Positions 3,301-21,481 of a DNA stretch of 24,000 nucleotides are shown piece after piece (position 1 is the stretch's first letter; each line of letters begins with the position of its first letter). The notes beneath the pieces are model-generated. The model had not been told where the DNA came from and searched no databases. It was given only the letters and a program-made list of their open reading frames with translations. The stretch is from Anthocerotibacter panamensis C109 (GTDB lineage Bacteria > Cyanobacteriota > Cyanobacteriia > Gloeobacterales > Anthocerotibacteraceae), in the NCBI RefSeq assembly GCF_018389385.1, contig NZ_CP062698.1:3294667-3318666 (forward strand), read 5' to 3'. The position numbers and the translations under genes were made by a program.

Positions 3301-6300
3301 ACCTTTAGCGTCGGCAGTACCGGCTTGCGTCAGGTCACCTATAGCTATGACTACGATGCCAGCAGCACCACAGCGCGGGGATATCTGACCCAGCGCACGG
3401 AGAGTGGTCCCAATGTGCCAGCCATTGCCCAGGGTCAGCAGTTCAGCTACAACGCGGTCGGGGAGCTAACCAGCACGCAGACTACAGCGGGCAGCTACAC
3501 CAGTGCCTACGACCTAGACGGTAACCCCACCGCTATCACCAATGCTGGGGTGAATACGACCGCCACCTATGAAGCAGGTAGCAACCGGATGACCGGCTTT
3601 GGGGGTCGCACCATTCAGACGGATGCCAACGGTAATATCACTAACGATGGCATCAACCGCTATGAGTGGAATGCCCGTGATGAACTCATCACCATCCGCG
3701 ACCAGAGTAACAACATCAGGGCCACGTTTATCTATGACGCTCTGGGTCGCCGTATTCAGAAGACAGTCAATGGGATAACCACCCAGTTCACCTACAGTGG
3801 CAGTCAGGTCATTGAAGAAGTGACCAATGGGGTCAAGAAGCGCTACTTGGTCGGTTTAGGGCTTGATGCAGTCTATGCTAGCCGAACTAATGGCGCGGAT
3901 GAATATTTGCTCAGAGACGCCCTCAACGGTTCCATCATTGCTGTGGTTGCGGGGAGCAATTCTCCGTATGTGAAGACCGGCTATGGCTACACGCCCTTCG
4001 GTCAAGTTGTGACTTCGAGTATCAACACTCTTCTGAGTGCGGACATCCTGTGGCGCAACACTGCCAGCAATCAAGTTGCAGTTTGGTTGATGAATGGAGC
4101 TACCTTTTCTGCTTCCACCCCTATTTCATATTATGCAGACCAAAATTGGCAAGTAGCGGCGAGTGGAGACTTGAATCAGGATGGCAAAACCGACATTCTT
4201 TGGCGAAACCTAATCACCGGACAAAATGTGGCATGGCTACTTGATGGAACCGCCTATAAGGGCGACGGCCCCTTACCTACCGTTACAGACCTATCCTGGC
4301 ATATTGAAGGCATAGCAGACTTCAATGGCGACGGGAAAAACGACTTGCTGTGGCGCAATTACGCTTCAGGAGCAAACTCTATCTGGTTGATGGATGGGAC
4401 AACACCGATAAGCTATCCTTCCTTACCCTGGCCTGCGGTCGGGGATCTTAATTGGCACATTGAGGAAGCTGCCGACTTCACAGGGGATGGGCAGCCTGAT
4501 ATCCTGTGGCGCAACTACAGCACTGGGACAGTAAGCATTTGGGTGATGAATGGGTTGAACTTTGTCTACAGTATTGGTTTGCCTATTGCGCCTGATCCAG
4601 CTTGGAAAGTTGGTGGGGTTGGCGACTTCACCGGAGACGGGAAAACAGATATCCTTTGGCGCAACTATACCGGTGGCGATATCCATATTTGGGTGATGTC
4701 TGGAGTTACCTATACGACCAGCATCGTTCTGTCTCCAGTTACCGATTTGAATTGGCAAATTGCCAGTGCTGGCGACTTTGGAGGTCCTGGTAGTGTCCCA
4801 CCTAACAATCTAACCTTCACAGGGCGCGAAGACGACGGAACCGGCCTCATCTACTACCGCGCCCGCTACTATTCTCCCGACCTGCAACGCTTTATCGCAG
4901 AAGACCCCTTGGGTTTTGGTGGGGGCGACACCAATCTCTACCGCTATGTGGGTAATACCCCCCATCTCGCGGTAGACCCCAGTGGCCTCCAGCAAACAAA
5001 ATTAAGTCCTAAGCCTACCCCCAGAAAACAAAGCAATGTCACCACCCAAAGTAGCATTACCGCCCCTGGTCCGACGACCAACAATTCTTGTGGTGTGGTT
5101 GTGTTCGGACCCGTTACCGCCTCCGCCGCACAGGGTAACCAAGCCATTGGGACAGACCCCCCACCTTCGCCTAACGACACTATTTGCGGATTTAGTATAA
5201 CCATTGGGGTTGGCGGCGGCGGCGGTTTCGTCGTCGCACTACCTGGTCAGACCGTCGCTGCTGGGGGTTCAGTTTCCTACGTTCCCTTCACCTACTTTTG
5301 CAATGCTTCCACCCCCTGCCTGCCCGAGGCTTATATTCAACTGTCTCTGAGTGGACAGCCCGCCGATTGGGTGCAAAGTGCCACCGCGATACCCGGAAGG
5401 ACAACCTACAGCTTCAATCCGCCCAACGTGTTCCCCTCGCAGCAGCAGAGTAGCACCCTGACGATACGCACCGATGCCAGTACGCCGCCGAATACCTACA
5501 ATCTGACCATCGGTGGGACTACCATCAATGGACCGTCGGGGGTGCGCTCGATGTCCACCAGCCTGACGGTAACGCCCCCGACCACGCCCCCAAATACCCC
5601 AACCATCACCAGTGTGAGCAGTTTCAGTGCCCAAGTGGGACAGACAGTGACCCTCACAGGCAACAATCTAGGCAATGCCACGCAAGTGTGGTTTGGAGGA
5701 GTTCCAGCAGCGTTCACCCTCAATGTCTCGACCAATACAGTAACGGCGGCAGTGCCCCCGAATGCCCCCACGGCTCCAATCAGTGTGGTCACGGCGAGTG
5801 GGACAACGCAGACAGCGCAGAATTTTATGCCTACGAATGTTCCTACTGCTCCGAGGCGAGCACAGTTTGATTTGGGCATAGCGGCTCAACAGCTCCAGCA
5901 ATTCTACGAACGCAACCAAGATGCGCTTCAGGGCACGTTTAGCGCCTTGGGACAGGTTTTGAACGGTGGACTCACCGGAATCCTGGGTCTGCTTGAACTC
6001 AGTGGAGGTGCAGCACTACTGAACTACGCTAACCTTGAAGATGGCTCCCTGAGTGGTGCGGTAGCGGCAGCGGCAGCAGCAGACTTATTAGCGGTTGGTT
6101 CTACTACAGTCCTTGCTGGCAATGCTTTGGTAAATCAGGGCGTTAAAGGGTTGTTCGAGCAGCAGTATTATGCAGCTTCGCAAGGAGGTGGGCAGATATT
6201 TAATGTTAAGGGCATTGGAAACTTAGATCTCACATCTGGAGGTATTAATAACTTTATTTCTAAAAACGCTAATCGCTTTCAAAAAAAGTTAGGAGATAAG

Positions 6301-6537
6301 ATTGGTCAGGGGCGGTTACCCTTTGAGAAAGGGCGAGCAGGGTTTGATAAAGCCCTATCCATAATTGATCGAACCCTAAAGAATCCAACAGATGTCTTTG
6401 GTCCATTTACTTCAGCAAGAGGACAAAACACCGTGATCGATATATTTAGTAGAGAAACAGGTTTTACAGTCCGAATCCGAGCCGATGGGAGTTTTGACAC
6501 CCTAATTCCAGGGCCAACACGAGGAATAAGACCATGA
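208..6537 (+). CDS. Full-length Rhs/YD-repeat polymorphic toxin (main gene, 2109 aa) with signal peptide, accessory-domain insertions, Rhs core end and a 515-aa post-DPSGL extension ending in a small variable toxin domain
   Basis: Single 6.3-kb ORF. Many YD-repeat signatures (YEYDGSGNLV, YSYDRLGRV, YTYDALDRV, YGYNELGQL, YAYDAAGNL, FIYDALGRR). Rhs core-end block LTFTGREDDGTGLIYYRARYYSPDLQRFIAEDPLGFGGGDTNLYRYVGNTPHLAVDPSGL at 4810-4989. The stop overlaps the next ATG (ATGA at 6534-6537). Confidence 0.9.
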   Translation: MFALLARWFHKFVCLLLLFIFTGNPLTAVVQAAVYVPSGFYYYDTLDLALGGQYPLFVSRHYQSQSASGASVAGLDGPFGPGTHMGLYSLRAEVVSTFRVRLFMPTGDEQAFIRVGDGTYRNERLSDPIQGIVQVNGTTITLTMERGTVLSFTASGSTRQLNSIQDRLGKVIRFEYDPGESRIRKVIDPFGRYIQFEYQAGTNRVSVAQLYAGTDGFNDWFVSYEYDGSGNLVRFHNVMDGQFASRADGSQTATNGVTQYSYSGNALTTITGPRGYVVLTNSYDGNGRIIQQRLPGVNSSTSADDVLTTYSYGTNSATLSNRDQAGASRFPTTLTWDGATQNITQARSEVDGSTSNATYDPTYNLIATYKNALNQQTTWNYQLDSSGTFTRLSRIQQSDSSQTNFSFNGSFGRISSVTDERNQTTSFTYHAADQSFGLNQVSSPLPQNDFYPQYNSYGQPLRYQDGQGRQVTYTYNDYVPSGTDPNPNTRFQDLASITDGSGVQVRLSYDALSRLTSLTDATGNTWTYSYDRLGRVLQIIAPGNRTTRYTYDDQSNLTSLTAPNGVKTTYTYDALDRVASRTQNGRTESYGYNELGQLTSSTDPKGQVTSYTFDSKGRTATVTFNNQSTLSYSYNTLDQVTQITDSSDPAGSKNIAFSYSTASNQINRLAQVTTAPGTTSQDKLNYAYDAAGNLTKVTREAPPPQEPYGFMDYGNCQNAGGWAYDPDNPSAILGINFYLDGPRGSGTYFASTQTGLYRSDLQANWGFNFTYPTPFQDNRAHTVYAYAVKNGIETLLNTDPQTTPVCAAPAPPPTTLNCANYPLSLSIDEGNYFPVGNATFRWTAPGTPNGYYIRVQNAATGAIRYDSSLVSFTSTILSLSLGNYLLSGSVWLNAPNVIGATPDAGGSRCPSTTPIAFTVYRENRPPLQSPQPLVLQNKAEASLAPVVSPAPQPDVPQGPPVLTDLLRYSYKNDNSLASATLVGNGDGADLTVSFNYDASGSLTSVSYPNGLTGNYSYTRPSGSPNGDVRQVTFSVGSTGLRQVTYSYDYDASSTTARGYLTQRTESGPNVPAIAQGQQFSYNAVGELTSTQTTAGSYTSAYDLDGNPTAITNAGVNTTATYEAGSNRMTGFGGRTIQTDANGNITNDGINRYEWNARDELITIRDQSNNIRATFIYDALGRRIQKTVNGITTQFTYSGSQVIEEVTNGVKKRYLVGLGLDAVYASRTNGADEYLLRDALNGSIIAVVAGSNSPYVKTGYGYTPFGQVVTSSINTLLSADILWRNTASNQVAVWLMNGATFSASTPISYYADQNWQVAASGDLNQDGKTDILWRNLITGQNVAWLLDGTAYKGDGPLPTVTDLSWHIEGIADFNGDGKNDLLWRNYASGANSIWLMDGTTPISYPSLPWPAVGDLNWHIEEAADFTGDGQPDILWRNYSTGTVSIWVMNGLNFVYSIGLPIAPDPAWKVGGVGDFTGDGKTDILWRNYTGGDIHIWVMSGVTYTTSIVLSPVTDLNWQIASAGDFGGPGSVPPNNLTFTGREDDGTGLIYYRARYYSPDLQRFIAEDPLGFGGGDTNLYRYVGNTPHLAVDPSGLQQTKLSPKPTPRKQSNVTTQSSITAPGPTTNNSCGVVVFGPVTASAAQGNQAIGTDPPPSPNDTICGFSITIGVGGGGGFVVALPGQTVAAGGSVSYVPFTYFCNASTPCLPEAYIQLSLSGQPADWVQSATAIPGRTTYSFNPPNVFPSQQQSSTLTIRTDASTPPNTYNLTIGGTTINGPSGVRSMSTSLTVTPPTTPPNTPTITSVSSFSAQVGQTVTLTGNNLGNATQVWFGGVPAAFTLNVSTNTVTAAVPPNAPTAPISVVTASGTTQTAQNFMPTNVPTAPRRAQFDLGIAAQQLQQFYERNQDALQGTFSALGQVLNGGLTGILGLLELSGGAALLNYANLEDGSLSGAVAAAAAADLLAVGSTTVLAGNALVNQGVKGLFEQQYYAASQGGGQIFNVKGIGNLDLTSGGINNFISKNANRFQKKLGDKIGQGRLPFEKGRAGFDKALSIIDRTLKNPTDVFGPFTSARGQNTVIDIFSRETGFTVRIRADGSFDTLIPGPTRGIRP
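2302..3090 (+). other. about 263-aa non-YD insertion in the Rhs shell region: GWAxDxD-type beta domain, Pro-rich linker, Ig/FN3-like domain, Pro-rich linker
   Basis: YD periodicity stops after YAYDAAGNLTKVTRE and resumes at LLRYSYKNDNSLASA. The insert contains YGFMDYGNCQNAGGWAYDPDNPSAILGINFYLDG...RSDLQANWGFNF...HTVYAYAV, then PVCAAPAPPPTT, then a beta-rich segment (NATFRWTAPGTPNGYYIRVQN...IAFTVY), then a P/Q-rich linker. Confidence 0.5.
4042..4809 (+). repeat. five tandem ~50-aa FG-GAP/VCBS-like repeats inserted between the last YD repeat and the Rhs core-end motif
   Basis: Repeating unit GDFxGDGKxDILWRNxxxGxxxxWxMxG. The DILWRN/DLLWRN codons recur at about 4042, 4195, 4345, 4498 and 4651 (period ~150 nt). 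Flanked by YGYTPFGQVV upstream and NNLTFTGREDDGTGL downstream. Confidence 0.75.
4810..4989 (+). other. Rhs core C-terminal block ending in DPSGL (expected autoproteolysis/demarcation motif)
   Basis: LTFTGREDDGTGLIYYRARYYSPDLQRFIAEDPLGFGGGDTNLYRYVGNTPHLAVDPSGL. DPSGL is encoded at 4975-4989. Full or partial copies recur at 10926-11063, 12634-12748, 15235-15416 and 19447-19570. Confidence 0.85.
5236..5577 (+). other. Ig-like beta-sandwich linker domain (linker type B)
   Basis: ALPGQTVAAGGSVSYVPFTYFC...SSTLTIRTDASTPPNTYNLTIGGTTINGPSGVRSMSTSLTVTP. The pattern resembles CARDB/DUF11-like Ig folds. Copies occur in the cassettes at 9210-9338 (partial), about 12980-13325 and about 19817-20158. Confidence 0.4.
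5599..5832 (+). repeat. IPT/TIG-like Ig domain, copy 1 of 7
   Basis: PTITSVSSFSAQVGQTVTLTGNNLGNATQVWFGGVPAAFTLNVSTNTVTAAVPPNAPTAPISVVTASGTTQTAQNFMP. The P-x-I-x-S-V-S...G-x-x-V-T-L-x-G-x-N-L...V-x-F-G-G layout is typical of IPT/TIG domains. Confidence 0.6.
5860..6174 (+). other. Gly/Ala-rich hydrophobic pre-toxin segment type D1, ending in LFEQQYYA
   Basis: AQFDLGIAAQQLQQFYERNQDALQGTFSALGQVLNGGLTGILGLLELSGGAALLNY...AAAAAADLLAVGSTTVLAGNALVNQGVKGLFEQQYYA. LFEQQYYA is encoded at 6151-6174. Paralogous copy at 18177-18491. Confidence 0.6.
6196..6534 (+). other. variable C-terminal toxin domain of the main Rhs (family not recognised)
   Basis: Similarity to the paralogous cassette at 18177-18512 ends right after EQQYYAASQGGGQ. 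The unique ~113-aa tail ends ...VIDIFSRETGFTVRIRADGSFDTLIPGPTRGIRP. Confidence 0.5.
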
Positions 6538-7160
6538 CTAGAGAACCTCTTCAAAGTCCCATTGGATGGGCTGACCTAGAATGCCTTCTATCGTGTCAAG
6601 AGCTTTCTATTCAATCTTTATATGCACTCGTAAAGATTGTCCAGGATTATGGTTTCATTTTGTTAGGCAGTGAATCCTTGTTAGCGTATGGTGATGACCC
6701 AGTCACGCCTGAACAGGTGGTTCCTGCCGAAAGAGTTAAGGAGTTTATAGCAGCGTTAGATAATTTAAGCATACGACATTGTATACTAAATTTTACAGGA
6801 GTTCTAGTTGATGTTCGGACACCATTAAGTCTTATAGTCGATTTCTGCAATGCAGTTGTGGTTGTTAGCATTCCAGAAAATGCACTTTGGAACTTTATAG
6901 AAGATTTCAAGAAAGTAGATTTTAGAAAACTAGAATCTTTTGCTAAATTGTGTCATAAAATCGCTACGGAGATAAGAGCCATACGTGGCTATCTTGGAAC
7001 TGAAATGCTTCACAGGGAAGATATGAACCTAACGAGGGACTTACATGAAGTATCATCCCCTGTAGATGAAGCCTTCTTTTCTAAAGAAACTTTAAGAGGG
7101 CTTTTTGACTGGTATTTTGCCTATGTCTGTGGATTTAATATAGGGCACCTCGATAAATAG
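6534..7160 (+). CDS. putative cognate immunity protein of the main Rhs toxin; 3' end altered by IS insertion
   Basis: ATGA start/stop overlap with the Rhs gene. Visibly AT-richer than the toxin gene. The last 5 codons (GHLDK-stop, 7143-7160) are encoded by the IS terminal repeat. Removing the IS and one TATA copy restores ...CGFNIHTVQ-stop. Confidence 0.6.
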   Translation: MTREPLQSPIGWADLECLLSCQELSIQSLYALVKIVQDYGFILLGSESLLAYGDDPVTPEQVVPAERVKEFIAALDNLSIRHCILNFTGVLVDVRTPLSLIVDFCNAVVVVSIPENALWNFIEDFKKVDFRKLESFAKLCHKIATEIRAIRGYLGTEMLHREDMNLTRDLHEVSSPVDEAFFSKETLRGLFDWYFAYVCGFNIGHLDK

Positions 7161-7271
7161 ATTCTGCCACCCCTAATTATTAGATAGAATATTTTTTTCA
7201 AGCAATAGCAACCAAAGATATTCTATTGGGCTTCATTTTGCTGTTCTTGTTCTCTTTTTTATCTCATTTAC

Positions 7272-8524
7272 TCACACTATCCCTGCTGTTTTTAAGTAGA
7301 CGTACCGTTTCAAGTTATAGCTCAGATTGAGCAAGCCCACTTTCGCAGCGATCCGTATCTGCCCCACGCCACGCAAGAGCTTCCCACCCATCTCATTTAC
7401 AAAACGACCAAACACATGTTCTACCCGTGCTCGGATTCGTGACTTCTCCCGATTCTCACTTTTTTGAGCTTCTGTCAATTCCCGATTTCGATAGCCCCGT
7501 TCATGGATCTTGCTATGAAAACCCATTTTAGCTAGCGCCCATTCTGTATCTGCACTGCGATAAGCACTGTCCGCCCACACGCTATCGCCTTCATTTTCTG
7601 CATCCAGGATGGCCCCTAACATTTGGGAGTCATGCACGGCGGCATCAGTCACCGCATAAACTCGAATAAAGCCGTATTCTGCATCGATATTTACATGGTT
7701 CTTGTAGCCAAAGTGCGATTCATCATTTTTTTTGGTCCAGCGGGCATCCCAGGGTCGTTTCATTCTCCGCGTTAAAGACTCAAATTCAAGGATGAGGGAT
7801 GTACCCCCGGATAAATAGCACTGACATAAATGACACAGCTTATTGCACGGTAAGTCTTGAAAACCTTGCCTGAAGATAATCCTAGCCAATTGAACTGACA
7901 TTTTTTCAAAACCCTGTCACCGCTTCATTTGGACTGTTTTCTCATCTAAATGAGAATGAAAAGACCCTGGCGGGCATCCACATCTTTTTGTTCTTTTTTT
8001 GATTCAGACCAACCTTCTGGAACTTGTCCAGCCTTGATTTGCTCATTCTCTAAACGTTTATTATGTTGCTTGGGCACAGGGATAAAACTAGCATCCACAA
8101 TCTGTCCACTCTTGGCTTGGTAGCCTTCCTCTACCAGATAGCTTTCAAAGCGCAAGTACAACGCTTCTATCAAACCTAACTGGGTTAACTGTTCTCGGAA
8201 TAAACCAATCGTCGTAGCGTCCGGGATTTGATCTTCTAGACCCAAATGCAAAAACTTCATAAAGGACAGGCGATCATGAACTTGGTATTCCAACTCAGCA
8301 TCGCTAATGTTATAGAGGCGTTGCAGTATTAGCATTTTAAATTTTAAAATTACGTCGATAGGCTTACGACCTGCATTACTTTTCCTGTCTTGAGCATAAA
8401 CTTGCTCCAGGATCGGGCGAAAATCCGACCAGGGAATCAGGGTATCTAACCGAACTAAAAAGCTTTTTCGTTGTTGCAATTGCTGATGGCGTTGTTCCCA
8501 ATCCCAAAACCCTTGCTGTCCCAT
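7272..8524 (-). pseudogene. IS5-family DDE transposase, split into two ORFs by a nested MITE
   Basis: The N-terminal ORF (likely ATG at 8524) reads MGQQGFWDWEQRH...NAGRKPIDVILKFKMLILQ...KDVDAR. The C-terminal ORF reads ...DARWTKKNDESHFGYKNH...ADSAYRS...RARVEHVFGRF. Deleting 7750-7979 (230 bp) fuses both in frame (KDVDARWTKKND) into about 340 codons. Confidence 0.85.
7750..7969. mobile_element. 220-bp MITE-like element nested in the IS5 transposase gene
   Basis: 18-bp terminal inverted repeats: CAGGGTCGTTTCATTCTC (7750-7767) versus the reverse complement of 7952-7969, CAGGGTCTTTTCATTCTC (17/18). Perfect 10-bp direct duplication GCGGGCATCC at 7740-7749 and 7970-7979. No credible coding capacity. 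Confidence 0.75.
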
Positions 8525-8795
8525 AATCAATTCCTTGGTTTCTCCAATTTTCTCATTTAGCAGCTCGCTAGGCAATTAATCGAGGTGCCCTATACATACT
8601 GTACAGTAAATAAACTATATTATTTCTCCCTCGCTCTATTAGACATTAAGTATTTAACTCTAATATTGTAGGGAAAGGTGCGTTTGGGCTTCCATAAGGA
8701 ATTAGCAATGGGTAGCCAAGTTCAATTCTACTCTACATAACCTATCAAGACGAAATCAATTTCTAGAGGTAACTCGGGCCTCGCTTAATGCGTAT

Positions 8796-9050: not shown

Positions 9051-9209
9051 ACAGAAAAATCCTCGGAGTTCTTATCCTCAGCCAGGTGGATTTTTAAATG
9101 GTTGAAGAAACATTATCAGAAAGGCCCTTATGGGATTTACATTGGACCCGAAGCATTTAATCAATCACAAAAGGGAGATCTTCAACTTGGTCCAAAATTA
9201 TTAAGCTAA

Positions 9210-10241
9210 TGTAGCGCTCTGACGATTCGCACCGATGCCAGTACGCCTCCCAACATCTACAATCTGACGATTGGCGGGACTACGATTAATGGCCCGTCGG
9301 GGGTGCGCTCGATGTCCACCAGCCTGACGGTGACGCCCTCGACCACGCCACCAAATACCCCAACCATCACCAGTGTGAGCAGCTTTAATGCCCAAGTGGG
9401 ACAGACAGTGACCCTCACGGGCAACAATCTGGGCAATGCCACGCAAGTGTGGTTTGGAGGAGTTCCAGCAGCGTTCACCCTCAATGTCTCGACCAATACA
9501 GTAACGGCGGCAGTGCCCCCGAATGCCCCCACGGCTCCAATCAGTGTGGTCACCCCGAGTGGGACAACGCAGACAGCGCAGAATTTTGTGCCTGTGCAGG
9601 TGGCTGCGGCTACGGGGCAGGCACAGTTCAATTTGGGTATAGCGGCTCAACAGCAGGATGAGCAGTTTATCAACTTCTTAAGGCAACGCTCCGTTGAGTA
9701 TGATAATCGGGTAGCGGGGCCAGCAGATTTATTTGACATAAACTACTACCTCCTTTTGAATAGGTTAAGAACTGTTCGCTCTATGCTTACTGGTAACCTT
9801 AAGGGGAGCAATATTGCAGTTGCATCAGCAAGTTTTAACGATCGAGCGCCACGTTTCTACATTGCATTGAGTGGTCAAAAGGATCTATCTACAGACCAGC
9901 TTGGAAAATTAGATATTGGTCCTGAAGAGTATGCAGGACTTGCAAAAATTGCTATCCGATATTTTAATGGAGGAATGGTTCCCAGGATAAATAGTAAAAC
10001 AGGAGAATTTAGGTTAGGTGAAAATGGCTCCATATTAATTCGAGAATCACAGTATGACTCAGAGCAAAAAATCCTTGAACAAGTTAGGATAGAGCTTTTA
10101 GCTGATCCAGCCTTAACTGGAACGGTTCGTATCCTAAGTGAGTATAAGTATTGTCCTGGTTGTTTGCGGAGCATTTCTAAGTTTGAAAAGGATTTTCCGC
10201 TACGTGTTAATCTTAAAGTTTATGACGCGGTAGGAAGATAA
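9210..10241 (+). pseudogene. orphan Rhs C-terminal cassette 2, 5'-truncated inside the Ig-like linker; TIG domain plus deaminase-like toxin domain
   Basis: Homology to the main gene begins abruptly at about 9211 (SALTIRTDASTPPNIYNLTIGG, compare 5452 onward), directly after an in-frame TAA. TIG copy at 9360-9593. Diverges from the D1 segment after AQFNLGIAAQQ (about 9654). The tail contains FYIALSGQ...YDSEQKILEQV-(x)-YKYCPGCLRSISKF. Confidence 0.7.
9360..9593 (+). repeat. IPT/TIG-like domain, copy 2
   Basis: PTITSVSSFNAQVGQTVTLTGNNLGNATQVWFGGVPAAFTLNVSTNTVTAAVPPNAPTAPISVVTPSGTTQTAQNFVP. Near-identical DNA to 5599-5832. Confidence 0.6.
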
Positions 10242-10430
10242 CCCGTGTAGTTATGTTAGGTTTCGATCTCTCATTAGGATGCCAAGGTGTCTGCAAGGGA
10301 AGCATCCTGCTAGTTTGGATGACAGACCAGATTGCATATGAGTGCTCCTTAGCTTCTTTACAGATACTAAAATCTTAAGGTAAGATTTGAAAGTAAATTC
10401 GAGGTGTTTCTCTTGCAAAAGGAGCTAAAA

Positions 10431-10895
10431 ATGTCAAACAAAATCAGATATGATGGTGTTTACAGAACGAATTGGATATATGACAATGAGGAAGACGTGG
10501 ACGAAGGTTATGGAGAACTCAATATGAATGAACGAGAAAATATAGAATTTGGAAAAACTGGTTTGGATGAATTGGAAGGAGCATACTATTATTTAAGATT
10601 CTACCCTGGTTACAAAGTTTTATCGTTAAGCTCTATTGATTTTTCTGTTGACAAGATTGCTTTAATGCTTACGAAAGAAAATACAGAAATTTATCGAGGA
10701 GCTTTAGGGGAAACTTCTTACGAGGTCGAAGGAGATAACGTTAGATTTCATAGACAGGAGCTTTGGGAAAGCATGGGTTTAAAGGTAGACGTAGTCTATA
10801 CTGGAGTACTAAATAATGACGTGATTGATATGGAGATTTTGAATCGTATGAATAATGTTAGGAGTCAATTTAAATACTACTTTTTTAAAGTTTAG
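10431..10895 (+). CDS. putative immunity protein for cassette 2
   Basis: AT-rich ORF directly downstream of the toxin. ATG at 10431 is preceded by AAGGAG (10419-10424), so it is preferred over the GTG at 10404 in the ORF track. No recognisable family. Confidence 0.5.
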   Translation: MSNKIRYDGVYRTNWIYDNEEDVDEGYGELNMNERENIEFGKTGLDELEGAYYYLRFYPGYKVLSLSSIDFSVDKIALMLTKENTEIYRGALGETSYEVEGDNVRFHRQELWESMGLKVDVVYTGVLNNDVIDMEILNRMNNVRSQFKYYFFKV

Positions 10896-10958
10896 GCTGG
10901 ACAAAACTGAACTAATTCTTGCCTCTCCCCCGACCTGCAACGCTTCATCAGTGATAGC

Positions 10959-12557: not shown

Positions 12558-12643
12558 TAGTGGATCTATCCTCAAGGGGTGACACCGGAGTCAGGATGCT
12601 TGCTGCATCAGCCTTCTAGCTTCCAGCCCCTTACAGTGATAGC

Positions 12644-14272
12644 TTGCGTGGCGAAGCCATAGACCCCCTGGACTTTGGGGGTGGCGACACCAACCTCTAC
12701 CGCTATGTGGGTAATACCCCGCATCTCGCGGTGGACCCCAGTGGACTCCAGCAGAGAAAATTAAGTCCTACGCCTGCCCCCAGAAAACAAAGCAACATTA
12801 CCGCCCCTCCTGCTGCGACCAACGATAGTTGTGTGGCCTTTTTTGGCTCTGTTACTCCTTCCTCTGGCCTCAATGACCAACCAACTCTGGTAGACCCGCC
12901 TGCTACCAATATCACTATTAGCTGTACCTGTGACCCGCTTTGCTTTGACATCAGAATTGGTGTGGGCGGCCCTCCGCCCACGGGTTTACCCGGTCAGACC
13001 GTGGCTGCCGGGGGCTCGACTTCCTACGTGCCCTTCACCTACTTTTGCAATGCTTCCACCCCCTGCCTGCCCGAAGCCTATATTCAACTGTCCTTGAGTG
13101 GACAGCCCGCTGATTGGGTGCAAAGTGCTACCGCGATACCCGGAAGGACAACCTACAGTTTCAATCCACCCAATGTCTATCCTTCGCAGCAGCAAAGTAG
13201 CACACTGACGATCCGCACCGATGCCAGTACGCCTCCCAACATCTACAACCTGACGATTGGCGGGACTACGATTAATGGCCCGTCGGGGGTGCGCTCAATG
13301 CCCACCAGTCTGACGGTGACGCCTTCGACCACGCCCCCAAACACACCGAGCATCAGCACGGTGAGCAGCTTTAGTGCCCAAGTGGGTCAGACGGTGACGC
13401 TCACAGGCAACAATTTGGGCAGTGCCACGGAAGTATGGTTTGGCGGTGTCCCAGCCGCCTTCACCGCGAATGTCTCGACCAATCAAGTGACGGCGACCAT
13501 CCCGCCGAATGCCCCCACGGCTCCAATCAGTGTGGTCACGGCGAGTGGGACAACGCAGACAGCACAGAATTTTGTGCCTACGAATGTTCCTACTGCTCCG
13601 AGGCGAGCGCAGTTCAACTTGGGAGTTGCGGCAGGGCAATTACGCAATGCAATCGTTGACTTTCCTGGAGTTCGTGGGTTTGCTACATTCACCTCGGGAG
13701 CCTATGACTTTGCTTCATTTGGCCTTACCGCTGCATTACGTGGAGGGTTGAATAGCCTTACCCAGGTCAGTGACCCAATTAATACAAGCTCCGGTCTGTA
13801 TCGTGCAGGTCAAGTCGCTGGTCTAGCGGCATCGTTTGTATTAGGGACTGGTGAAGCAGGATTAATTGCTGAAGTTGAAGAAGGAGTATCGGGTATAGGT
13901 CGAGTAGCTGAAGTTGTAGGAGGGCGAACTCGACCTAGTTTTTATGTGACGCCGGGAGGTACCGTAGTACCCAGCGTTACTCCTGCTGGTATAGAAGTTT
14001 CAGCGGAGGCAGCTTTTCGTTTAGGAGAAGGAAGATTCAACGAAGCTTTGACTTTAGAGAATCTTGATGTCTTAATAGAAAGAGGAGAGAAGTTCATCGA
14101 AGATAATGGAAACTTAGTTCGTCGGCTACCTGCTTCAGGCGTAGGTGTACCTAGCAGGTCTGGGCGTTCTTTCATTGAAGCGATCCTTGATCCAATAGGG
14201 AGACGTATTATCACCATCATTCGCCGACAAAGACCGCTTCCCCCTGGGCGCTTTACACAGGTTAATCCATGA
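12644..14272 (+). CDS. orphan Rhs C-terminal cassette 4 (no credible own start): core end, Ig-like linker, TIG, ~215-aa unique C-terminal region
   Basis: Homology begins at 12634 with the same junction as cassette 3 (SDSLRGEAIDPLDFGGGDTNLYRYVGNTPHLAVDPSGL). DPSGL at 12734-12748. TIG at 13346-13579. Diverges after AQFNLGVAAGQ (about 13640) and has no EQQYYA motif. Confidence 0.8.
   Translation: MRGEAIDPLDFGGGDTNLYRYVGNTPHLAVDPSGLQQRKLSPTPAPRKQSNITAPPAATNDSCVAFFGSVTPSSGLNDQPTLVDPPATNITISCTCDPLCFDIRIGVGGPPPTGLPGQTVAAGGSTSYVPFTYFCNASTPCLPEAYIQLSLSGQPADWVQSATAIPGRTTYSFNPPNVYPSQQQSSTLTIRTDASTPPNIYNLTIGGTTINGPSGVRSMPTSLTVTPSTTPPNTPSISTVSSFSAQVGQTVTLTGNNLGSATEVWFGGVPAAFTANVSTNQVTATIPPNAPTAPISVVTASGTTQTAQNFVPTNVPTAPRRAQFNLGVAAGQLRNAIVDFPGVRGFATFTSGAYDFASFGLTAALRGGLNSLTQVSDPINTSSGLYRAGQVAGLAASFVLGTGEAGLIAEVEEGVSGIGRVAEVVGGRTRPSFYVTPGGTVVPSVTPAGIEVSAEAAFRLGEGRFNEALTLENLDVLIERGEKFIEDNGNLVRRLPASGVGVPSRSGRSFIEAILDPIGRRIITIIRRQRPLPPGRFTQVNP
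13346..13579 (+). repeat. IPT/TIG-like domain, copy 4
   Basis: PSISTVSSFSAQVGQTVTLTGNNLGSATEVWFGGVPAAFTANVSTNQVTATIPPNAPTAPISVVTASGTTQTAQNFVP. Confidence 0.6.
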
Positions 14273-14772
14273 ATTCAACAACGTTTTACCTTATGGTTGT
14301 GCTTTCGGAACAGAAAGTGCCTGAAGAGATGCTCCCCTCTTCAACGGTGAGGTTTGTGCAATATCCCTCTTATTCACTCTTATCTGCTGACGTTAGTTAT
14401 AAAAGTGAAACACCAATGGAAGATATGATTCCTTTTGGACATTTAGACGTAGGTCTTACTACCTGTTACCATTTTCAAAGTGCAGAATGTACTCTTAAAA
14501 TTGAGAATTGGAAACTCGATGATAACTGTCCATCCCATCAACGTTTAGCCAGCGCAGAACCATCATTAATTAAGCTCTCAGATATTCAGCTTGGCTTGCC
14601 TATTAAAGTTGAGTATATTCAGAATTTTAATGGCTCAATATGGGGAGTCACTATCAACAAGAATGCACAAGGTTTAATAAAAAGGATTGCCTCAAATATT
14701 TTAGTAGAGATTGATCGCGGTCAAGTTGTGGGTGTATGGTTTGAAAACGTGCTTATAAGCATAACTTGTTAG
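14269..14772 (+). CDS. putative immunity protein for cassette 4
   Basis: ATGA overlap with the toxin stop (14269-14272). 167 aa, AT-rich, no recognised family. Confidence 0.6.
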   Translation: MNSTTFYLMVVLSEQKVPEEMLPSSTVRFVQYPSYSLLSADVSYKSETPMEDMIPFGHLDVGLTTCYHFQSAECTLKIENWKLDDNCPSHQRLASAEPSLIKLSDIQLGLPIKVEYIQNFNGSIWGVTINKNAQGLIKRIASNILVEIDRGQVVGVWFENVLISITC

Positions 14773-14876: not shown

Positions 14877-16590
14877 AACAACAATTACTGGCTGCGGGGC
14901 CAGGCGCAAGGTCAGTTTATTCAACAATGGACGGTCAGTAATAGCAACTGGGCGGACCTTACCAGCGATGTGCCCCAACAATTGGCGAATGGTCGGGTAG
15001 ATGTTGTCTTCACCAATGACTATGCTGATTCAACGGCGGACCGTAATCTGCTTGTCGATACAGTAAATATCCATGGCAATGTTATTGCTGCACAAAGTAG
15101 TGCAGTCTATTACGATACGGGCGATCCTTTTGACGGAGTGTATGTGGGGTCAGGGGTCAACTTTGCCGGATGCCCTGTAGGGACAGGTGCATGTTTTCAA
15201 GGCGCTCTCCGATTCACTCCCGGCAGCACCAACAATCTGACCTTCACAGGGCGCGAAGACGATGGGACGGGACTCATCTACTACCGCGCCCGCTACTATT
15301 CTGCCGACCTGCAACGCTTTATCGCAGAAGACCCCCTCGGTTTTGGGGGTGGCGACACCAACCTCTATCGCTATGTGGGTAATGCCCCCCATCTCGCGGT
15401 AGACCCCAGTGGACTCCAGCAAACAAAATCAAGTCCTACCCTCAACCCTAATCCCGCCCCTAGCCGTGAATTTACCCTCGCCGAAGTACCAGGGGCTACT
15501 ACGGCTGGAGCCTGCGATTTTCTATTCAGTGCCGAGCCAGTACAGACAAATCTCACTACCTGTACCTGCGATTCATTTGGCAGGTGCTACGAGTGTCAGA
15601 TAGAAGGCTTTTGCACTCAGGTTTGTGGACCAGGAACAATATTTAGCTGTGGGGGCGGGGTTCTTCCTCCAGGTGGCGGTGGGGGCGGCGGCGGCGGTGG
15701 AACCCTCCCAAGTATCAGCGGGGTCAGCAGCTTCAGTGCGCAGGTAGGAACGGATATCACGATTTCGGGTAGTAACCTGAGCAATGCGACAGCAGTACGC
15801 TTCGGGAATGTCCCAGCTGCGTTCACCCTCAATGTCTCGACCAATGCAGTGACAGCGGCAGTGCCCCCGAATGCCCCCACGGCTCCTATCAGTGTGGTCA
15901 CCCCGAGTGGGACAACGCAGACAGCGCAGAACTTTGTGCCTGTGCAGGTGGCTACGGGCCCTACGCCAAGCACAATCTGCTCTAGCGAATGTCGCTGACC
16001 AGCTCTTGCAGGGATTGACCAGCCGAGATTTCCTGGAGAGTGTAGCTAATGGGGCAGATGCTACAGGGAATGCCCTTTACGGATTTTCTGTAATTGCTGG
16101 TGTTTTTGGAGCAGGTAGCTCATCTACAGGGGGCGGTGCCATCGTTGGCGTACCTGCTTTGGCGATAGCAGGTGGCGCTGTAGTGGCTGGGGCAGGGCTC
16201 AAGTCTAGTGCTGCGAATATCAGAGGGATCTTGGAGCAGCAGTACTATGCGGCTGGCGGCAAGGCAGCAAATGAAGTTGGAAGGCTTAGAGTAGAAAAAG
16301 TAGTAGAATTAACAGGTGGAACAGCTTCTGGAGAAAAAGTTTCAGTGAAAACACTTGGAAGCACAGACCTGGATGTGATTGGCCCTAGCGGAGAACTCAT
16401 TTCTGTTGGTGGTCCTGCTAAAGCAGGTAACCTGGGAAATTTTGTTAGAGAATTGAGGATTTACCAAGCTATTGCATCACAAAGAGGAGTTTACGTTAAA
16501 GCATACTTAGCAGAAGGGACGCCTCAATCAGCAATCGATAAGGCAATACGTGAATTGGGAGAAAAAAATGTATTTATCTTTACTCCATGA
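14877..16590 (+). pseudogene. orphan Rhs C-terminal cassette 5, 5'-truncated and frameshifted: CBM-like domain fragment, complete core end, Cys-rich/poly-Gly linker, TIG, D2 segment, toxin
   Basis: Open frame from 14877, after TAA TAG. RVDVVFTNDYADSTADRNLLVDTVNIHG is followed by NNLTFTGREDDGTGLIYYRARYYSADLQRFIAEDPLGFGGGD...DPSGL (15402-15416). Poly-Gly at 15672-15701. TIG at 15708-15941. An extra G in ACGGGCCC (15956-15958; the paralog at 20426-20431 has ACGGCCC) shifts the frame. The product continues in the ORF 15871-16590 frame (ALRQAQSALANVADQ...ILEQQYYA at 16228-16251). Confidence 0.75.
15708..15941 (+). repeat. IPT/TIG-like domain, copy 5 (most diverged)
   Basis: PSISGVSSFSAQVGTDITISGSNLSNATAVRFGNVPAAFTLNVSTNAVTAAVPPNAPTAPISVVTPSGTTQTAQNFVP. 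Confidence 0.6.
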
Positions 16591-16997
16591 GTACTCCCTG
16601 TGTCATAGATTTGTTTATCTATGCAGATCTAGAGGCTGCGTTTGATCTCTTAATTAGCAAAGTTCTAAGCGAGTGTGGATACAAGCTTCAAAATCCCTCA
16701 AATAACGAGATCACTACATTTAGCGAGGAAGGAGAAATCAAAGTAATCGATCCAACTACCATTCAGGCAGTTATTAGCTCTAATCAAAGCTTGGGTGTGC
16801 AGTTATGGAAAGATGAATCAAGGGATCTATATATTTCATGGAAACGCGGAGACACTTTTTGGAAATTCAGCCTATTTTTAGATGGGATGACTCTAGAAGA
16901 AGCGTCAGAAATCATTAATACAATATTTTCTGAATTGATTTGGAAACAGAAACTTGAAAATACTTTGTATACCGAGATGAAGATATTTATTGAGTAG
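16587..16997 (+). CDS. putative immunity protein for cassette 5
   Basis: ATGA overlap with the toxin stop (16587-16590). 136 aa, AT-rich. Confidence 0.6.
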   Translation: MSTPCVIDLFIYADLEAAFDLLISKVLSECGYKLQNPSNNEITTFSEEGEIKVIDPTTIQAVISSNQSLGVQLWKDESRDLYISWKRGDTFWKFSLFLDGMTLEEASEIINTIFSELIWKQKLENTLYTEMKIFIE

Positions 16998-17933: not shown

Positions 17934-18035
17934 GAACTAGCCATCTTTTTTATCAAGGGCCAATTCAAATTTGAAGTGCACCACTTAGGGATTTACCGAG
18001 AGGGGCTCACGGGGTAATCTGACGTTTACTATCAC

Positions 18036-18149
18036 CTCAATGTCTCGACCAATGCAGTGACGGCGACCATCCCCCCGAATGCCCCCACGGCTCCAATCAG
18101 TGTGGTCACCCCGAGTGGGACGGCACAGACAGCGCAGAATTTTATGCCT
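18036..18149 (+). repeat. IPT/TIG-like domain, copy 6 (C-terminal half only)
   Basis: LNVSTNAVTATIPPNAPTAPISVVTPSGTAQTAQNFMP. The N-terminal half of the domain is absent. Confidence 0.6.
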
Positions 18150-18797
18150 GTGCAGGTGGCTGCGGCTACGGGGCAAGCGCAGTTTGATTTGCGCATAGCG
18201 GCTCAACAGCTCCAGCAATTCTACGAAAATAACCAAGATGCAATCCAGGGCACGTTTAGCGCCTTGGGACAGATTTTGAACGGTGGACTCACCGGAATCC
18301 TAGGTCTGATTGAACTCAGTGGAGGTGCGGCACTACTGAACTACGCTAACTTTGAAGATGGCTCCCTTAGTGGTGCGGCAGCGGCAGCAGCAGCTACAGA
18401 CTTATTAGCGGTTGGCTCTGCTACAGTCGTTGCTGGCAGTGCCGTGGTGAATCAGGGTGTCAAGGGGTTGTTCGAGCAGCAGTTCTATGCGGCTTTGCAA
18501 GGAGGTGGGCAAAGTTCCATAAAGACTTTTGGACAGGATTTAAAAAATATTCGCGAGGTAGCAACTGGACGGCTCAAGGGTTTTTCTAGGGGAAACACAA
18601 CCCTTCCGAGAGGGGATCAAGGTGCTCGAGATCTATTTGAAAAGCTTACTGGAACCCCCCCTACAGGAGATTTTGACCGTGCTATTCTACAAGATGGGCG
18701 AGAGATTGTATTCAGAGCAATCAGTAGATCTGGACCAGCTAAAATTGAAGTGGTTGATCCCCTGCAAAGTTTTTTGGAAAAAATTTCTTTTCCTTAG
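18036..18797 (+). pseudogene. orphan Rhs C-terminal cassette 6, 5'-truncated inside the TIG domain; D1 segment plus ~95-aa toxin
   Basis: Homology starts at LNVSTNAVTATIPPNAPTAPISVV (18036), 6 codons after an in-frame TAA. D1 copy at 18177-18491 with LFEQQFYA at 18468-18491. Diverges from the main gene after QGGGQ (18513). Confidence 0.7.
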
Positions 18798-18808
18798 GAG
18801 GGAATTCT

Positions 18809-19180
18809 GTGTGTAACATTTTACTGCAAGATGTGCGTAACCTCTTAGATCTATGGTCTTTGGGGTCACTTGATGCACGCAAGGTTCATGAGGAAGCTGA
18901 GAAATTATGGGAAAGTATTCAACCTGATTCTTTTTATCCTAAAGACAACTATAAATCAATTATCATTGAGGTCTTGTCTCAGCTAGAGATTCTGAACCAC
19001 CAACTTATCATGCCCGATGATATTCCAGCTATTCTCCGATTTCTCGACACCCCCAATGGAAAGGAGTTGCAGGGATGGGAGGACTGGCTCAACTATTGGG
19101 AGAATATTGATATGGACGTTCGTAGAGAAAACTTAAGGTCGAATCCTTACTACTGCTCTGTACTTGAAAACTTAAGGTAA
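18809..19180 (+). CDS. putative immunity protein for cassette 6
   Basis: GTG at 18809 preceded by AGGAGG (18796-18801), 11 nt after the toxin stop. 123 aa, AT-rich and helical-looking. Confidence 0.55.
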   Translation: MCNILLQDVRNLLDLWSLGSLDARKVHEEAEKLWESIQPDSFYPKDNYKSIIIEVLSQLEILNHQLIMPDDIPAILRFLDTPNGKELQGWEDWLNYWENIDMDVRRENLRSNPYYCSVLENLR

Positions 19181-19248
19181 ATCGAGGTTTATCAAGTACT
19201 ACATCTAGCGTTTGTGAGGTACCTAAACGCAAGTATTCAGGTAGTTGG

Positions 19249-19440: not shown

Positions 19441-21094
19441 CGACCACTACTACAGCCCAGAACTCCAGCGCTTTATCGCAGAAGACCCCTTGGGTTTTGG
19501 TGGGGGCGACACCAATCTCTACCGCTATGTGGGTAATACCCCGCATCTCGCGGTAGACCCCAGTGGACTCCAGCAAACAAAATTAAGTCCTAAGCCTACC
19601 CCCAGAAAACAAAGCAATGTCACCACCCAAAGCAGCATTACCGCCCCTGGTCCGACGACCAACAATTCTTGTGGTGTGGTTGTGTTCGGACCCGTTACCG
19701 CCTCCGCCGCACAGGGTAACCAAGCCATTGGGACAGACCCCCCACCTTCGCCTAACGACACTATTTGCGGATTTAGTATAACCATTGGGGTTGGCGGCGG
19801 CGGCGGTTTCGTCGTCGCACTACCTGGTCAGACCGTCGCTGCTGGGGGTTCAGTTTCCTACGTTCCCTTCACCTACTTTTGCAATGCTTCCACCCCCTGC
19901 CTGCCCGAGGCTTATATTCAACTGTCTCTGAGTGGACAGCCCGCCGATTGGGTGCAAAGTGCCACCGCGATACCCGGAAGGACAACCTACAGTTTCAATC
20001 CACCCAATGTCTATCCTTCGCAGCAGCAGAGTAGCACCCTGACGATACGCACCGATGCCAGTACGCCGCCGAATACCTACAATCTGACCATCGGTGGGAC
20101 TACCATCAATGGACCGTCGGGGGTGCGCCCGATGCCCACCAGTCTGACGGTGACGCCCCCGACCACGCCCCCCAATACCCCAACCATCACCAGTGTGAGC
20201 AGTTTCAGTGCCCAAGTGGGTCAGACGGTGACCCTCACGGGCAACAATCTAGGCAATGCCACCCAAGTATGGTTTGGAGGAGTTCCAGCAGCATTCACCC
20301 TCAATGTCTCGACCAATCAAGTGACAGCAACAGTGCCCCCGAATGCCCCCACGGCTCCAATCAGTGTGGTCACGGCGAGTGGGACAACGCAGACAGCGCA
20401 GAATTTTGTGCCTGTGCAGGTGGCTACGGCCCTACGCCAAGCACAATCTGCTCTAGCGAATGTCGCTGACCAGCTCTTGCAGGGATTGACCAGCCGAGAT
20501 TTCCTGGAGAGTGTAGCTAATGGGGCAGATGCTACAGGGAATGCAGCAGGAGCCTTGGCACTTATTCTTGGCGCAGAAGGTACAGGTACAACACTCACGG
20601 GTGTTGGAGCGCTCATTGGGGTACCAAGCTTGGCTGGAGCAGTGGGTGCAGCCGGAGTATCTGTCATTGCTAAGGGGAGCGCAACTTTGATTCGAGGGTT
20701 GCTGGAGCAGCAGTTCTATGCGATAGAAGGCCCCTTGGAAAATGCTAACTTTGCGCAGAAGAGCATTAATAAGGGAGAATTATTTAGTGAGGAAGGACAA
20801 GCTATCTATAGCAAGTTAGCAGGCAGACCAATTAAAACAGTTAACGATCTTGTCGAGGCAATTAAAGGTGGGGGCATTAATCCTGCCGATATTAAAATTG
20901 ACTATATCATTCGCGAAGGAAATACCCTTTTATTGAACACTCGCTCTGTAGCAGCCCTTGAGCGTGCAGGGGTTCCCCGTAGCGCCTTCTCTGCTATAAA
21001 TAGAACTGGAGATCCTTTCTTTGAAAAGCTGCTTGATGCTCAATTGCGCCGCAATGGGCTGACAAGCCAAGGTACTCCAAAGCTGCTCAGGTAA
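19421..21094 (+). CDS. orphan Rhs C-terminal cassette 7 (5' end cut by the IS remnant): core end, Ig-like linker, TIG, D2 segment, ParB-like-looking toxin
   Basis: Rhs homology from YYSPELQRFIAEDPLGFGGGD (19447). DPSGL at 19556-19570. 19469-19992 is near-identical to 4888-5411. TIG at 20180-20413. LLEQQFYA at 20699-20722. The unique tail reads IEGPLENANFAQKSINKGELFSEEG...IKIDYIIREGNTLLLNTRSVAALERAGVPR... Confidence 0.8.
   Translation: MVTAKRNDHYYSPELQRFIAEDPLGFGGGDTNLYRYVGNTPHLAVDPSGLQQTKLSPKPTPRKQSNVTTQSSITAPGPTTNNSCGVVVFGPVTASAAQGNQAIGTDPPPSPNDTICGFSITIGVGGGGGFVVALPGQTVAAGGSVSYVPFTYFCNASTPCLPEAYIQLSLSGQPADWVQSATAIPGRTTYSFNPPNVYPSQQQSSTLTIRTDASTPPNTYNLTIGGTTINGPSGVRPMPTSLTVTPPTTPPNTPTITSVSSFSAQVGQTVTLTGNNLGNATQVWFGGVPAAFTLNVSTNQVTATVPPNAPTAPISVVTASGTTQTAQNFVPVQVATALRQAQSALANVADQLLQGLTSRDFLESVANGADATGNAAGALALILGAEGTGTTLTGVGALIGVPSLAGAVGAAGVSVIAKGSATLIRGLLEQQFYAIEGPLENANFAQKSINKGELFSEEGQAIYSKLAGRPIKTVNDLVEAIKGGGINPADIKIDYIIREGNTLLLNTRSVAALERAGVPRSAFSAINRTGDPFFEKLLDAQLRRNGLTSQGTPKLLR
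20180..20413 (+). repeat. IPT/TIG-like domain, copy 7
   Basis: PTITSVSSFSAQVGQTVTLTGNNLGNATQVWFGGVPAAFTLNVSTNQVTATVPPNAPTAPISVVTASGTTQTAQNFVP. Confidence 0.6.
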
Positions 21095-21100
21095 GCGCCC

Positions 21101-21481
21101 ATGGAAACACAGATAGTCTACACAATTCCCAATACAGCTCTCGATTGCTTAAATGCTCAATTTATATATGAGGAAACAGACTTGATCCTCAAGTTGGAGT
21201 ACGAAGATGAAGATGGTATGGTGCGGTCCTATCACATTCGGTTTATTCATGCGCAATTGTTTCGATTTGAAAATGAAATGCACTGTATTTCCATCACAGC
21301 AGGAGCCTATGATGGGGTAGTTGAATTAGTTGATTCGGCTTGGGCTATGGAGATCAATTCCTTTGAAAATGAATATAACCGTCACAGTCCCTGGAGTAAA
21401 AGACATTTTTGCATATATATCAGTAGCACAGGACAGCTAAATATCATTGCAGACAGTTTCACTGTTGAGGTTGTAAAATGA
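21101..21481 (+). CDS. putative immunity protein for cassette 7
   Basis: Starts 6 nt after the toxin stop. 126 aa, AT-rich. The pattern ...HIRFIHAQLFRFENE...VVELVDSAWAMEI...RHFCIYISSTGQLNIIADSFTV resembles common small Rhs/CDI immunity proteins. Confidence 0.6.
   Translation: METQIVYTIPNTALDCLNAQFIYEETDLILKLEYEDEDGMVRSYHIRFIHAQLFRFENEMHCISITAGAYDGVVELVDSAWAMEINSFENEYNRHSPWSKRHFCIYISSTGQLNIIADSFTVEVVK

Follow-up and report, generated by a model that had tools for sequence, protein, structure and literature searches.

We analysed a 24,000-nt stretch of DNA (hereafter the window) from Anthocerotibacter panamensis C109, a thylakoid-less cyanobacterium of the Gloeobacterales whose 4.19-Mb chromosome is available as a single contig (NZ_CP062698.1; the window spans positions 3,294,667 to 3,318,666 of the forward strand, and all coordinates below count from its first nucleotide). 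The window carries one complete Rhs toxin gene (208-6537) followed by six co-directional, 5'-truncated toxin/immunity cassettes, c2 to c7. Between the DPxGL motif that ends the Rhs core and the individual toxins, the main gene and the cassettes share a series of domains, here called tiers, whose sequences change partners from one part of the copies to another, i.e. the array is a mosaic.

The Rhs gene and its six truncated cassettes

A first-pass annotation made from the sequence alone had described six co-directional orphan cassettes behind an Rhs main gene, each truncated to a different depth. The orphan cassettes were confirmed by self-blastn, in-frame translation and alignment, and the six different depths by the latter two. 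In the self-blastn comparison 29 direct repeat pairs (110-1002 nt, 76-96% identity) joined 4799-6194 to six downstream regions. The copies are laid out as follows, where linker B or B', the TIG domain and the pre-toxin domain D1 or D2 are the shared tiers.

208..6537, plus strand: main Rhs gene (P0014), 2109 aa, with DUF6531, RHS/YD repeats, core end, linker B, TIG, D1 and toxin 1
4810..4989, plus strand: Rhs-associated core end of the main gene, LTFTGREDD...DPLG-x18-DPSGL (TIGR03696), predicted aspartyl autoprotease and cleavage site
9208..10241, plus strand: cassette 2, with the 3' part of linker B, TIG, a short shared helix and a BURPS668_1122-family deaminase toxin
10923..12191, plus strand: cassette 3, with the core end from SPDLQRFI including a 21-nt insertion (SDSLRGE), linker B', TIG, D2 and toxin 3
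12634..14272, plus strand: cassette 4, with the core end from the SDSLRGE insertion and DPL, a diverged linker B, TIG, its own hydrophobic segment and toxin 4
14892..16590, plus strand: cassette 5, with a CBM60-like domain, the full core end, B', TIG, D2 and toxin 5
18032..18797, plus strand: cassette 6, with the C-terminal half of TIG, D1 (83-94% identical to the main gene) and toxin 6
19441..21094, plus strand: cassette 7, with the core end from YYSPELQRF, linker B, TIG, D2 and toxin 7

A piece of the core upstream of DPxGL is kept in c3, c4, c5 and c7, and c2 and c6 begin downstream of that motif. The start of c2 lies at LTIRTDAS in linker B (9208), that of c4 just 5' of DPL (12634), that of c6 in mid-TIG (18032) and that of c7 at HYYSPELQRF (19441); c7 matches the main gene at 96% identity across 973 nt, of which one tract of 359 nt is identical. 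The whole core end (15237-15416) is retained in c5 from LTFTGREDDGTGL (LTFTGREDD), preceded by ~340 nt of upstream open reading frame (ORF) sequence that is CBM60-like and unrelated to the main gene. The 5' junctions are abrupt and unique to each cassette, with stop codons ahead, and every cassette is closed by a toxin end of low guanine-plus-cytosine (GC) content and a small ORF of its own kind (GC 0.34-0.48 in toxins and downstream ORFs, versus 0.53-0.59 in the shared tiers). Every copy is an intact ORF with the exception of c5, which is split by a +1 frameshift (extra G at 15956-15958). No pair among the seven toxins, or among the seven downstream ORFs, showed significant similarity; the unique toxin and unique downstream ORF that had been claimed for each copy are therefore real, and all are mutually unrelated.

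That the main gene is an Rhs gene, as first annotated, is clear from its matches to PF05593 (E=1.5e-46, in at least 7 stretches), TIGR01643 (E=9e-36) and TIGR03696. The TIGR03696 core lies at aa 1531-1594 and scores 67 bits against a cut-off of 32.5 bits, and the DPLG-x18-DPSGL motif, DPLGFGGGDTNLYRYVGNTPHLAVDPSGL, occupies aa 1566-1594 (nt 4903-4989), with both Asp motifs present. The N-terminus of the protein is signal-peptide-like and it has no PAAR or VgrG match in Pfam or NCBIfam, features that place it, on sequence grounds, in the Sec-dependent class of Rhs toxins described previously (PMC3482391), i.e. among the Rhs proteins that do not depend on a type VI secretion system (T6SS).

Two insertions interrupt the shell part of the main protein. 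Four FG-GAP repeats are inserted at aa ~1270-1530 (nt 4045-4800), and a ~260-aa non-RHS insert lies in the repeat region (2314-3102, aa 703-965); the latter is absent from the closest relative, a Gloeobacter protein described below. The position just 5' of LTFTGREDDGTGL is occupied by the CBM60-like domain in c5 (14892-15236), by FG-GAP in the main gene and by neither in Gloeobacter, so that the shell position just ahead of the core end looks like a variable insertion site.

A mosaic of shared tiers downstream of DPxGL

Past DPSGL, homology of the cassettes to the main gene continues for 0.85-1.2 kb, to nt 5832-6194, and stops at AQF(D/N)L or GL(F/L)EQQ(Y/F)YA, where GC falls. The main C-terminal region after DPSGL (4990-6537) comprises 515 aa (52.9 kDa), and ahead of the toxin it contains three tiers:

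4990..5598, plus strand: tier 1, linker B, a Pro-rich linker and a beta-rich, possibly immunoglobulin-like (Ig-like) region
5599..5859, plus strand: tier 2, an IPT/TIG domain and a short post-TIG linker (5821-5859)
5860..6171, plus strand: tier 3, pre-toxin domain D1, from AQFDLGIAAQQ to GLFEQQYY, homologous to D2 of c3, c5 and c7

Linker B is common to the main gene, c7 (359 nt identical), c4 (58-95% identity) and c2 (3' part only), and c3 and c5 have an unrelated linker, B', which is Cys-rich with poly-Gly. Linker B had been annotated as Ig-like; the Big_3_3 match (E=0.007) misses its cut-off and the AlphaFold2 predicted local distance difference test score (pLDDT) is ~30, and we retain the label only with a question mark. 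The TIG domain has a Pfam match, a pLDDT of 70-80 and TIG-like PDB matches by Foldseek, and these TIG-like matches were all that a Foldseek search of the PDB returned. Over the whole main C-terminal region the AlphaFold2 model had a mean pLDDT of 51 and was confident for the TIG domain and toxin 1 alone. The post-TIG linker is ~13 aa long and exists in 3-4 variants among the copies.

The assignment of linker, TIG and pre-toxin tiers to the seven copies stands as first annotated when the copies are aligned, with two corrections in tier 3. First, D1 and D2, which had been listed separately, are not unrelated segments. Each has two Gly/Ala-rich hydrophobic segments, and they align end to end with 23 invariant columns, which means that they are diverged forms of one domain family; the D domain is predicted to be helical, at low confidence. 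Second, the toxins of c2 and c4 are not attached directly, as had been proposed: c4 has its own hydrophobic pre-toxin segment and c2 a ~20-aa helix ahead of the toxin, and both recur elsewhere in the genome (in P0004 and P0009, respectively). An exhaustive profile search with the D domain among 1.84 billion representative proteins recovered A. panamensis proteins only, and no window protein gave a HINT match.

P0004 and P0009 are two of four further cassettes found elsewhere in the A. panamensis genome, the others being P0001 and P0010. Two of these paralogues carry toxins of the CdiA_C (P0001) and Tox-REase-7 types. P0001 opens on the C-terminal residues of a HINT domain, YNLEVAGDHTYFVG, which run straight into the linker-B domain at its middle, and P0004 begins at nearly the same point (ADWVQS); these starts may point to a parent gene of the HINT type and to a breakpoint used more than once.

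To follow relationships along the copies, partner identities were taken in 60-column windows of the copy alignment. The main gene and c7 are 100% identical over 5053-5400, and their identity is 88% at 5401-5460, where c4 and c7 are 97% identical. The nearest partner of c2 is c4 at 5461-5520 and the main gene at 5641-5760. In the c5 TIG domain, the N-terminal half has diverged (50-64% identity to all other copies), and the C-terminal half matches the main gene and c2 at 92-98% identity; the start of D2 is then 97-100% identical among c3, c5 and c7, after which c5 falls to ~52%, i.e. the middle of its D2 has also diverged. In the quartet formed by the main gene, c2, c4 and c7, the 36 informative sites were split over all three groupings and were spatially clustered within 440 nt (10 runs, permutation p<1e-4). 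Partner switching and the quartet test thus favour the shuffled mosaic of the first-pass annotation over a single colinear duplication series.

Individual copies are hybrids on a larger scale as well. The 21-nt core-end insertion SDSLRGE is common to c3 and c4, and c3 combines this core variant with the B' linker of c5 (90-100% identity). When the seven window copies are considered together with the four genome paralogues, the core variant, the type of linker, the post-TIG linker and the type of pre-toxin part vary independently of one another. The same pre-toxin domain occurs with different toxins (D1 with toxins 1 and 6, D2 with toxins 3, 5 and 7, and a D1' form in P0001 and P0010), as do the c4-type segment (c4 and P0004) and the short helix (c2 and P0009), and D1, the c4-type segment and the short helix are each paired with two post-TIG linkers once P0001, P0004, P0009 and P0010 are included. 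The earlier statement that every linker/segment combination except B' with D1 occurs is wrong for the window, where B' with direct attachment is absent too; that combination is found only in P0009.

Exact tracts of 30-359 nt tie every cassette to the main gene, all in direct orientation, and the longest identical tracts (359, 122, 117 and 114 nt) lie beside stretches of 50-88% identity. The breakpoints fall at domain borders and also inside domains, and the pattern is therefore as much one of patchy gene conversion over long homology as of clean module exchange. The ratio of nonsynonymous to synonymous divergence (dN/dS) is 0.10-0.36 in every shared tier, and synonymous divergence (dS) ranges from 0.07 (the linker of the main gene and c7) to ~0.8 (c3 and c5). 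The low dN/dS and the range of dS indicate that the copies diverged as functional coding sequence, some of them long ago, and that some have recently been homogenised.

Toxins, immunity genes and neighbouring elements

The toxin of the main gene, the ORFs downstream of each toxin and an insertion sequence (IS) lie at the following positions.

6172..6537, plus strand: toxin 1 (GC 0.42; AlphaFold2 pLDDT ~88; three helices and a four-stranded sheet)
6534..7160, plus strand: immunity gene i1, start overlapping the toxin 1 stop
7139..8594, minus strand: IS5-family element, with 20-nt inverted repeats at 7139-7158 and 8575-8594 (95% complementary)
10404..10895 (probable ATG at 10431), plus strand: candidate immunity gene i2, GC 0.34, lacking a transmembrane segment
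12207..12557, plus strand: candidate immunity gene i3
14269..14772, plus strand: candidate immunity gene i4, start overlapping the toxin 4 stop
16587..16997, plus strand: candidate immunity gene i5, start overlapping the toxin 5 stop
18809..19180, plus strand: candidate immunity gene i6
21101..21481, plus strand: candidate immunity gene i7

Homologues of toxin 1 (69-70% identity) stand at the C-terminal end of an Rhs protein from Lentisalinibacter and of an unrelated non-Rhs protein from a metagenome. In both loci the next gene overlaps the toxin stop and aligns full-length with i1 at 42-44% identity; toxin 1 and i1 are a conserved pair in two unrelated loci. By their position, the other downstream ORFs are candidate immunity partners of the adjacent toxins. 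When the toxin and immunity domains were compared with Pfam and NCBIfam, the sole identification was the c2 toxin (PF14424, the BURPS668_1122-family deaminase). No transmembrane segments were predicted in the immunity candidates, which suggests that the toxins act in the cytoplasm.

Toxin 7 has a single homologue, P0134 (52% identity), on a 1.5-kb JGI contig. At the end of the array, a gene for a Tpt1/KptA RNA 2'-phosphotransferase (21478-22041; PF01885, E=1.8e-34) has a cassette-like GC of 0.42 and overlaps the i7 stop by 4 nt with its start. The layout of the P0134 contig matches (products of 113 and 130 aa, and an overlapping third gene of 172 aa or more), and toxin 7, i7 and KptA may form a toxin/immunity/repair triad. 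Further 3' of the array lies a 144-nt direct repeat (22130-22273 and 23531-23674, 81% identity).

The IS5 transposase is split into two minus-strand ORFs (7946-8575 and 7272-7901). The element sits in the end of i1, where it has replaced the last ~8 codons and altered the C-terminus. We considered whether it could have truncated c2; this was ruled out, as its inverted repeats lie inside the i1 end and 610 nt ahead of c2. Those ~610 nt of low-GC DNA (8595-9207) contain an 84-aa ORF (8796-9050) resembling nothing else in the window, and the stretch may be what is left of a lost cassette. A 276-aa ORF (17103-17933, GC 0.39) lies between i5 and c6, with no toxin fragment ahead of it and no Pfam or NCBIfam match; it may be a second or orphaned immunity gene. 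Searches of the window for tRNA genes and Rfam families gave no match.

A putative silent-cassette array and its alternatives

Taken together, these features make it probable that the window contains a Sec-dependent Rhs polymorphic-toxin locus with a mosaic array of silent cassettes that is fed by recombination. In the scheme we favour, a single expressed gene (208-6537) would make the YD-repeat shell and the DPxG-x18-DPxGL autoprotease, and the predicted cleavage would leave an unusually long region of 515 aa, in which the linker/beta-rich domain and TIG are followed by a helical, hydrophobic pre-toxin domain and, last, by a small toxin that the adjacent cytosolic immunity protein would neutralise. 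The six cassettes would be displaced or imported 3' ends of related alleles; as they have neither the secretion part nor the shell part, they should not be exported in their present form. The boundary between conserved and variable sequence in the Gloeobacterales lineage would then be not DPxGL but AQF(D/N)L or GLxEQQ(Y/F)YA, 0.9-1.2 kb downstream, and this displacement of the boundary would leave long homology among all copies. Across that homology, RecA-type recombination and gene conversion would repeatedly have re-assorted the core variants, the linkers, the TIG and pre-toxin domains and the post-TIG linkers, and the main gene could capture the toxin/immunity pair of any cassette via deletion or unequal exchange. 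The exact tracts shared by the main gene and the cassettes are long enough for RecA-dependent recombination to fuse the two.

The alternative that survives best is that the orphans are not silent and are expressed from internal starts, either to act inside the cell in the manner of toxin/antitoxin modules or to be exported in truncated form. The orphans are intact ORFs save for c5, their dN/dS is well below 1, and NCBI annotates proteins from internal start codons within them; orphan Rhs toxins are moreover transcribed and active in Snodgrassella (PMC5727410) and, reportedly, in Salmonella (PMC7043789). However, the orphan ORFs have neither signal peptide nor shell, c5 is frameshifted, promoter-like sites are no more frequent than expected by chance (23 found versus 22.3 expected), and the purifying selection could equally predate displacement. 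We therefore think expression of the orphans unlikely, while giving it more weight than either of the other alternatives.

Plain serial C-terminal displacement, in which the cassettes are former 3' ends, the tiers mirror differences between donors and nothing is exchanged inside the array, has still less to recommend it. The layout, with an intact gene, conserved 5' parts of variable length and low-GC tips, is what the classical model describes (PMC2935791), and dS values of up to 0.6-0.8 between some copies speak for old, separately evolved donors. Such a history does not account for three incompatible groupings clustered along 440 nt, for identical tracts of up to 359 nt adjoining stretches of 50-88% identity, or for a c3 whose core variant is that of c4 and whose linker is that of c5; to produce these patterns, lineages must have crossed over with one another, and the length of the identical tracts suggests that at least some of the events were recent and took place within the genome. 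An assembly artefact, i.e. several full-length Rhs genes collapsed or chimerically joined into one array, might be suspected in a repeat-rich region of a genome with four more cassettes elsewhere, but is highly improbable given that the repeats are at most 1 kb long, only 76-96% identical and split by unique toxin/immunity DNA, that the 5' junctions are abrupt and unique with stop codons ahead, that the chromosome is a single 4.19-Mb contig and that just one full-length shell paralogue was found in it.

Several points count against the recombination-fed array that we favour. The anatomy, the homology, the mosaicism, the purifying selection and the linkage of toxin 1 with i1 can be read from the sequences, whereas cleavage, export, toxicity, the silence of the cassettes, switching and a role of the hydrophobic tier in membrane translocation are deduced. 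The promoter-like sites, together with a terminator scan of the same outcome, stand at chance level. In its present form c5 would yield no in-frame fusion. Part of the mosaic may have arisen before the array, by recombination in the strain pool rather than in situ. The D tier has a fold modelled at low confidence and no homologue outside the A. panamensis genome, and genome-contig, metagenome-contig and profile searches placed the cassette family in one genome only: a scan of genome contigs with the TIG alignment and a scan of metagenome contigs gave no match, and a genome-contig scan with the Gloeobacter homologue gave an N-terminal fragment (from an Aphanocapsa lilacina metagenome-assembled genome) and a weak Bacteroidales match, with no array. 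Finally, solved Rhs shells have cavities of 32,000-35,000 cubic angstroms and toxins of 15-16 kDa (PMC10684867), and since the 52.9-kDa C-terminal region is several times larger than such toxins the standard picture of encapsulation may not apply.

Orphan Rhs arrays with core fragments of variable length are classic (PMC2935791, PMC3967940, PMC5727410), and the A. panamensis locus resembles the enterobacterial rhs-CT/rhsI arrays in having an intact gene followed by co-directional 5'-truncated fragments with conserved parts of variable length, a unique low-GC toxin tip and immunity gene for each fragment, and homology that permits re-arming of the main gene by recombination. It differs from them in four respects. 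In the classical arrays of E. coli, Serratia, Salmonella and Snodgrassella, homology between main gene and orphans ends at PxxxxDPxGL (PMC2935791, PMC5727410), whereas here it passes DPxGL and runs on for 0.6-1.2 kb through three or four more domain tiers. The core fragments of the enterobacterial loci are near-identical to the main gene, whereas the A. panamensis copies are 50-100% identical in patches; c2 and c6 have no core at all; and delivery would be of the Sec type, in a cyanobacterium, instead of by T6SS. CdiA-CT regions are likewise known to be two-part and shuffled (PMC9424206, PMC9086364), with one N-terminal sub-domain found with different toxins and orphan modules downstream. Unlike these, the A. 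panamensis locus has no TPS, FHA or VENN elements (Pfam, NCBIfam), its carrier is an Rhs shell, and its pre-toxin domain is hydrophobic, Gly/Ala-rich and unique to its genome, with an entry function that can only be proposed. The first-pass annotation had regarded the nested modularity as undescribed, and this holds only narrowly: orphan arrays, displacement, immunity pairing and two-part shuffled CdiA-CT regions are well established, and what is new is the boundary displaced past DPxGL, the multi-domain post-cleavage region, the nested mosaicism with its shuffled tiers and the T6SS-independent cyanobacterial context.

The main gene is most closely related to an Rhs/IPT-TIG protein of Gloeobacter violaceus (P0015, 41% identity), which has the same N-terminus, shell and DPxG-x18-DPxGL motif. 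The 835-aa region after its DPTGL runs from a homologous beta-rich domain through 4-5 TIG domains and a Gly/Ala-rich hydrophobic segment to a PT-HINT domain and, last, the toxin; it thus shares the order of beta-rich, TIG and hydrophobic parts ahead of the toxin, and differs from the main gene in its number of TIG domains, its PT-HINT and the absence of the FG-GAP insertion. The like architecture of the two proteins indicates that the post-DPxGL Ig/TIG/hydrophobic region is ancestral to the Gloeobacterales lineage. In more distant Rhs proteins of the Sec type, a hydrophobic stretch often comes straight after DPxGL, sometimes with HINT behind it, and a hydrophobic pre-toxin element therefore appears to be widespread in the class; the peculiarity of the Gloeobacterales, judging from the sequences compared, appears to be the Ig/TIG insertion ahead of it.

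By analogy with the entry domains of CdiA-CT (PMC9424206), we infer that the hydrophobic tier may help the toxin to cross the target membrane, an idea with which the two hydrophobic segments of D, the non-membrane immunity candidates and the hydrophobic stretch of distant Sec-type Rhs proteins are consistent. That D is itself a pore-forming toxin is less likely, as behind every D there is a soluble domain of its own kind, paired with a non-membrane immunity candidate.

Colicins and S-type pyocins have receptor-binding, translocation and killing domains that are shuffled by recombination. The A. panamensis locus is like them in its tiered payload, in delivery and killing domains that assort independently and in the adjacent immunity gene; it is unlike them in that there is no sequence relationship, that they are free-standing bacteriocins rather than the C-termini of Rhs shells, and that roles can be given to the A. 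panamensis tiers by analogy alone. We would tentatively suggest, as a rather long shot, that the piece released at DPxGL in the Gloeobacterales is a colicin-like payload with surface-binding (beta-rich/TIG), membrane-translocation (D) and killing parts. If this were true, the array would store alternatives for each tier, recombination would change delivery route and target as well as toxin, and the 53-85 kDa payload would exceed the known Rhs cavity and would call for a different mode of packaging.

In the usual account of Rhs diversification, one tip is swapped at one junction, DPxGL. At the A. panamensis locus, in an early-branching cyanobacterial lineage, the boundary between variable and conserved sequence lies ~1 kb further downstream, and the intervening region consists of conserved domains that are under purifying selection and are themselves re-assorted. 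The 53-kDa post-cleavage region challenges the idea that the whole C-terminal region of an Rhs protein resides inside the shell. How Rhs toxins enter the target cytoplasm independently of T6SS is poorly understood, and the natural chimeras at hand, in which one D domain occurs with different toxins and one linker with different D domains, are well suited to tests of the role of the pre-toxin region.

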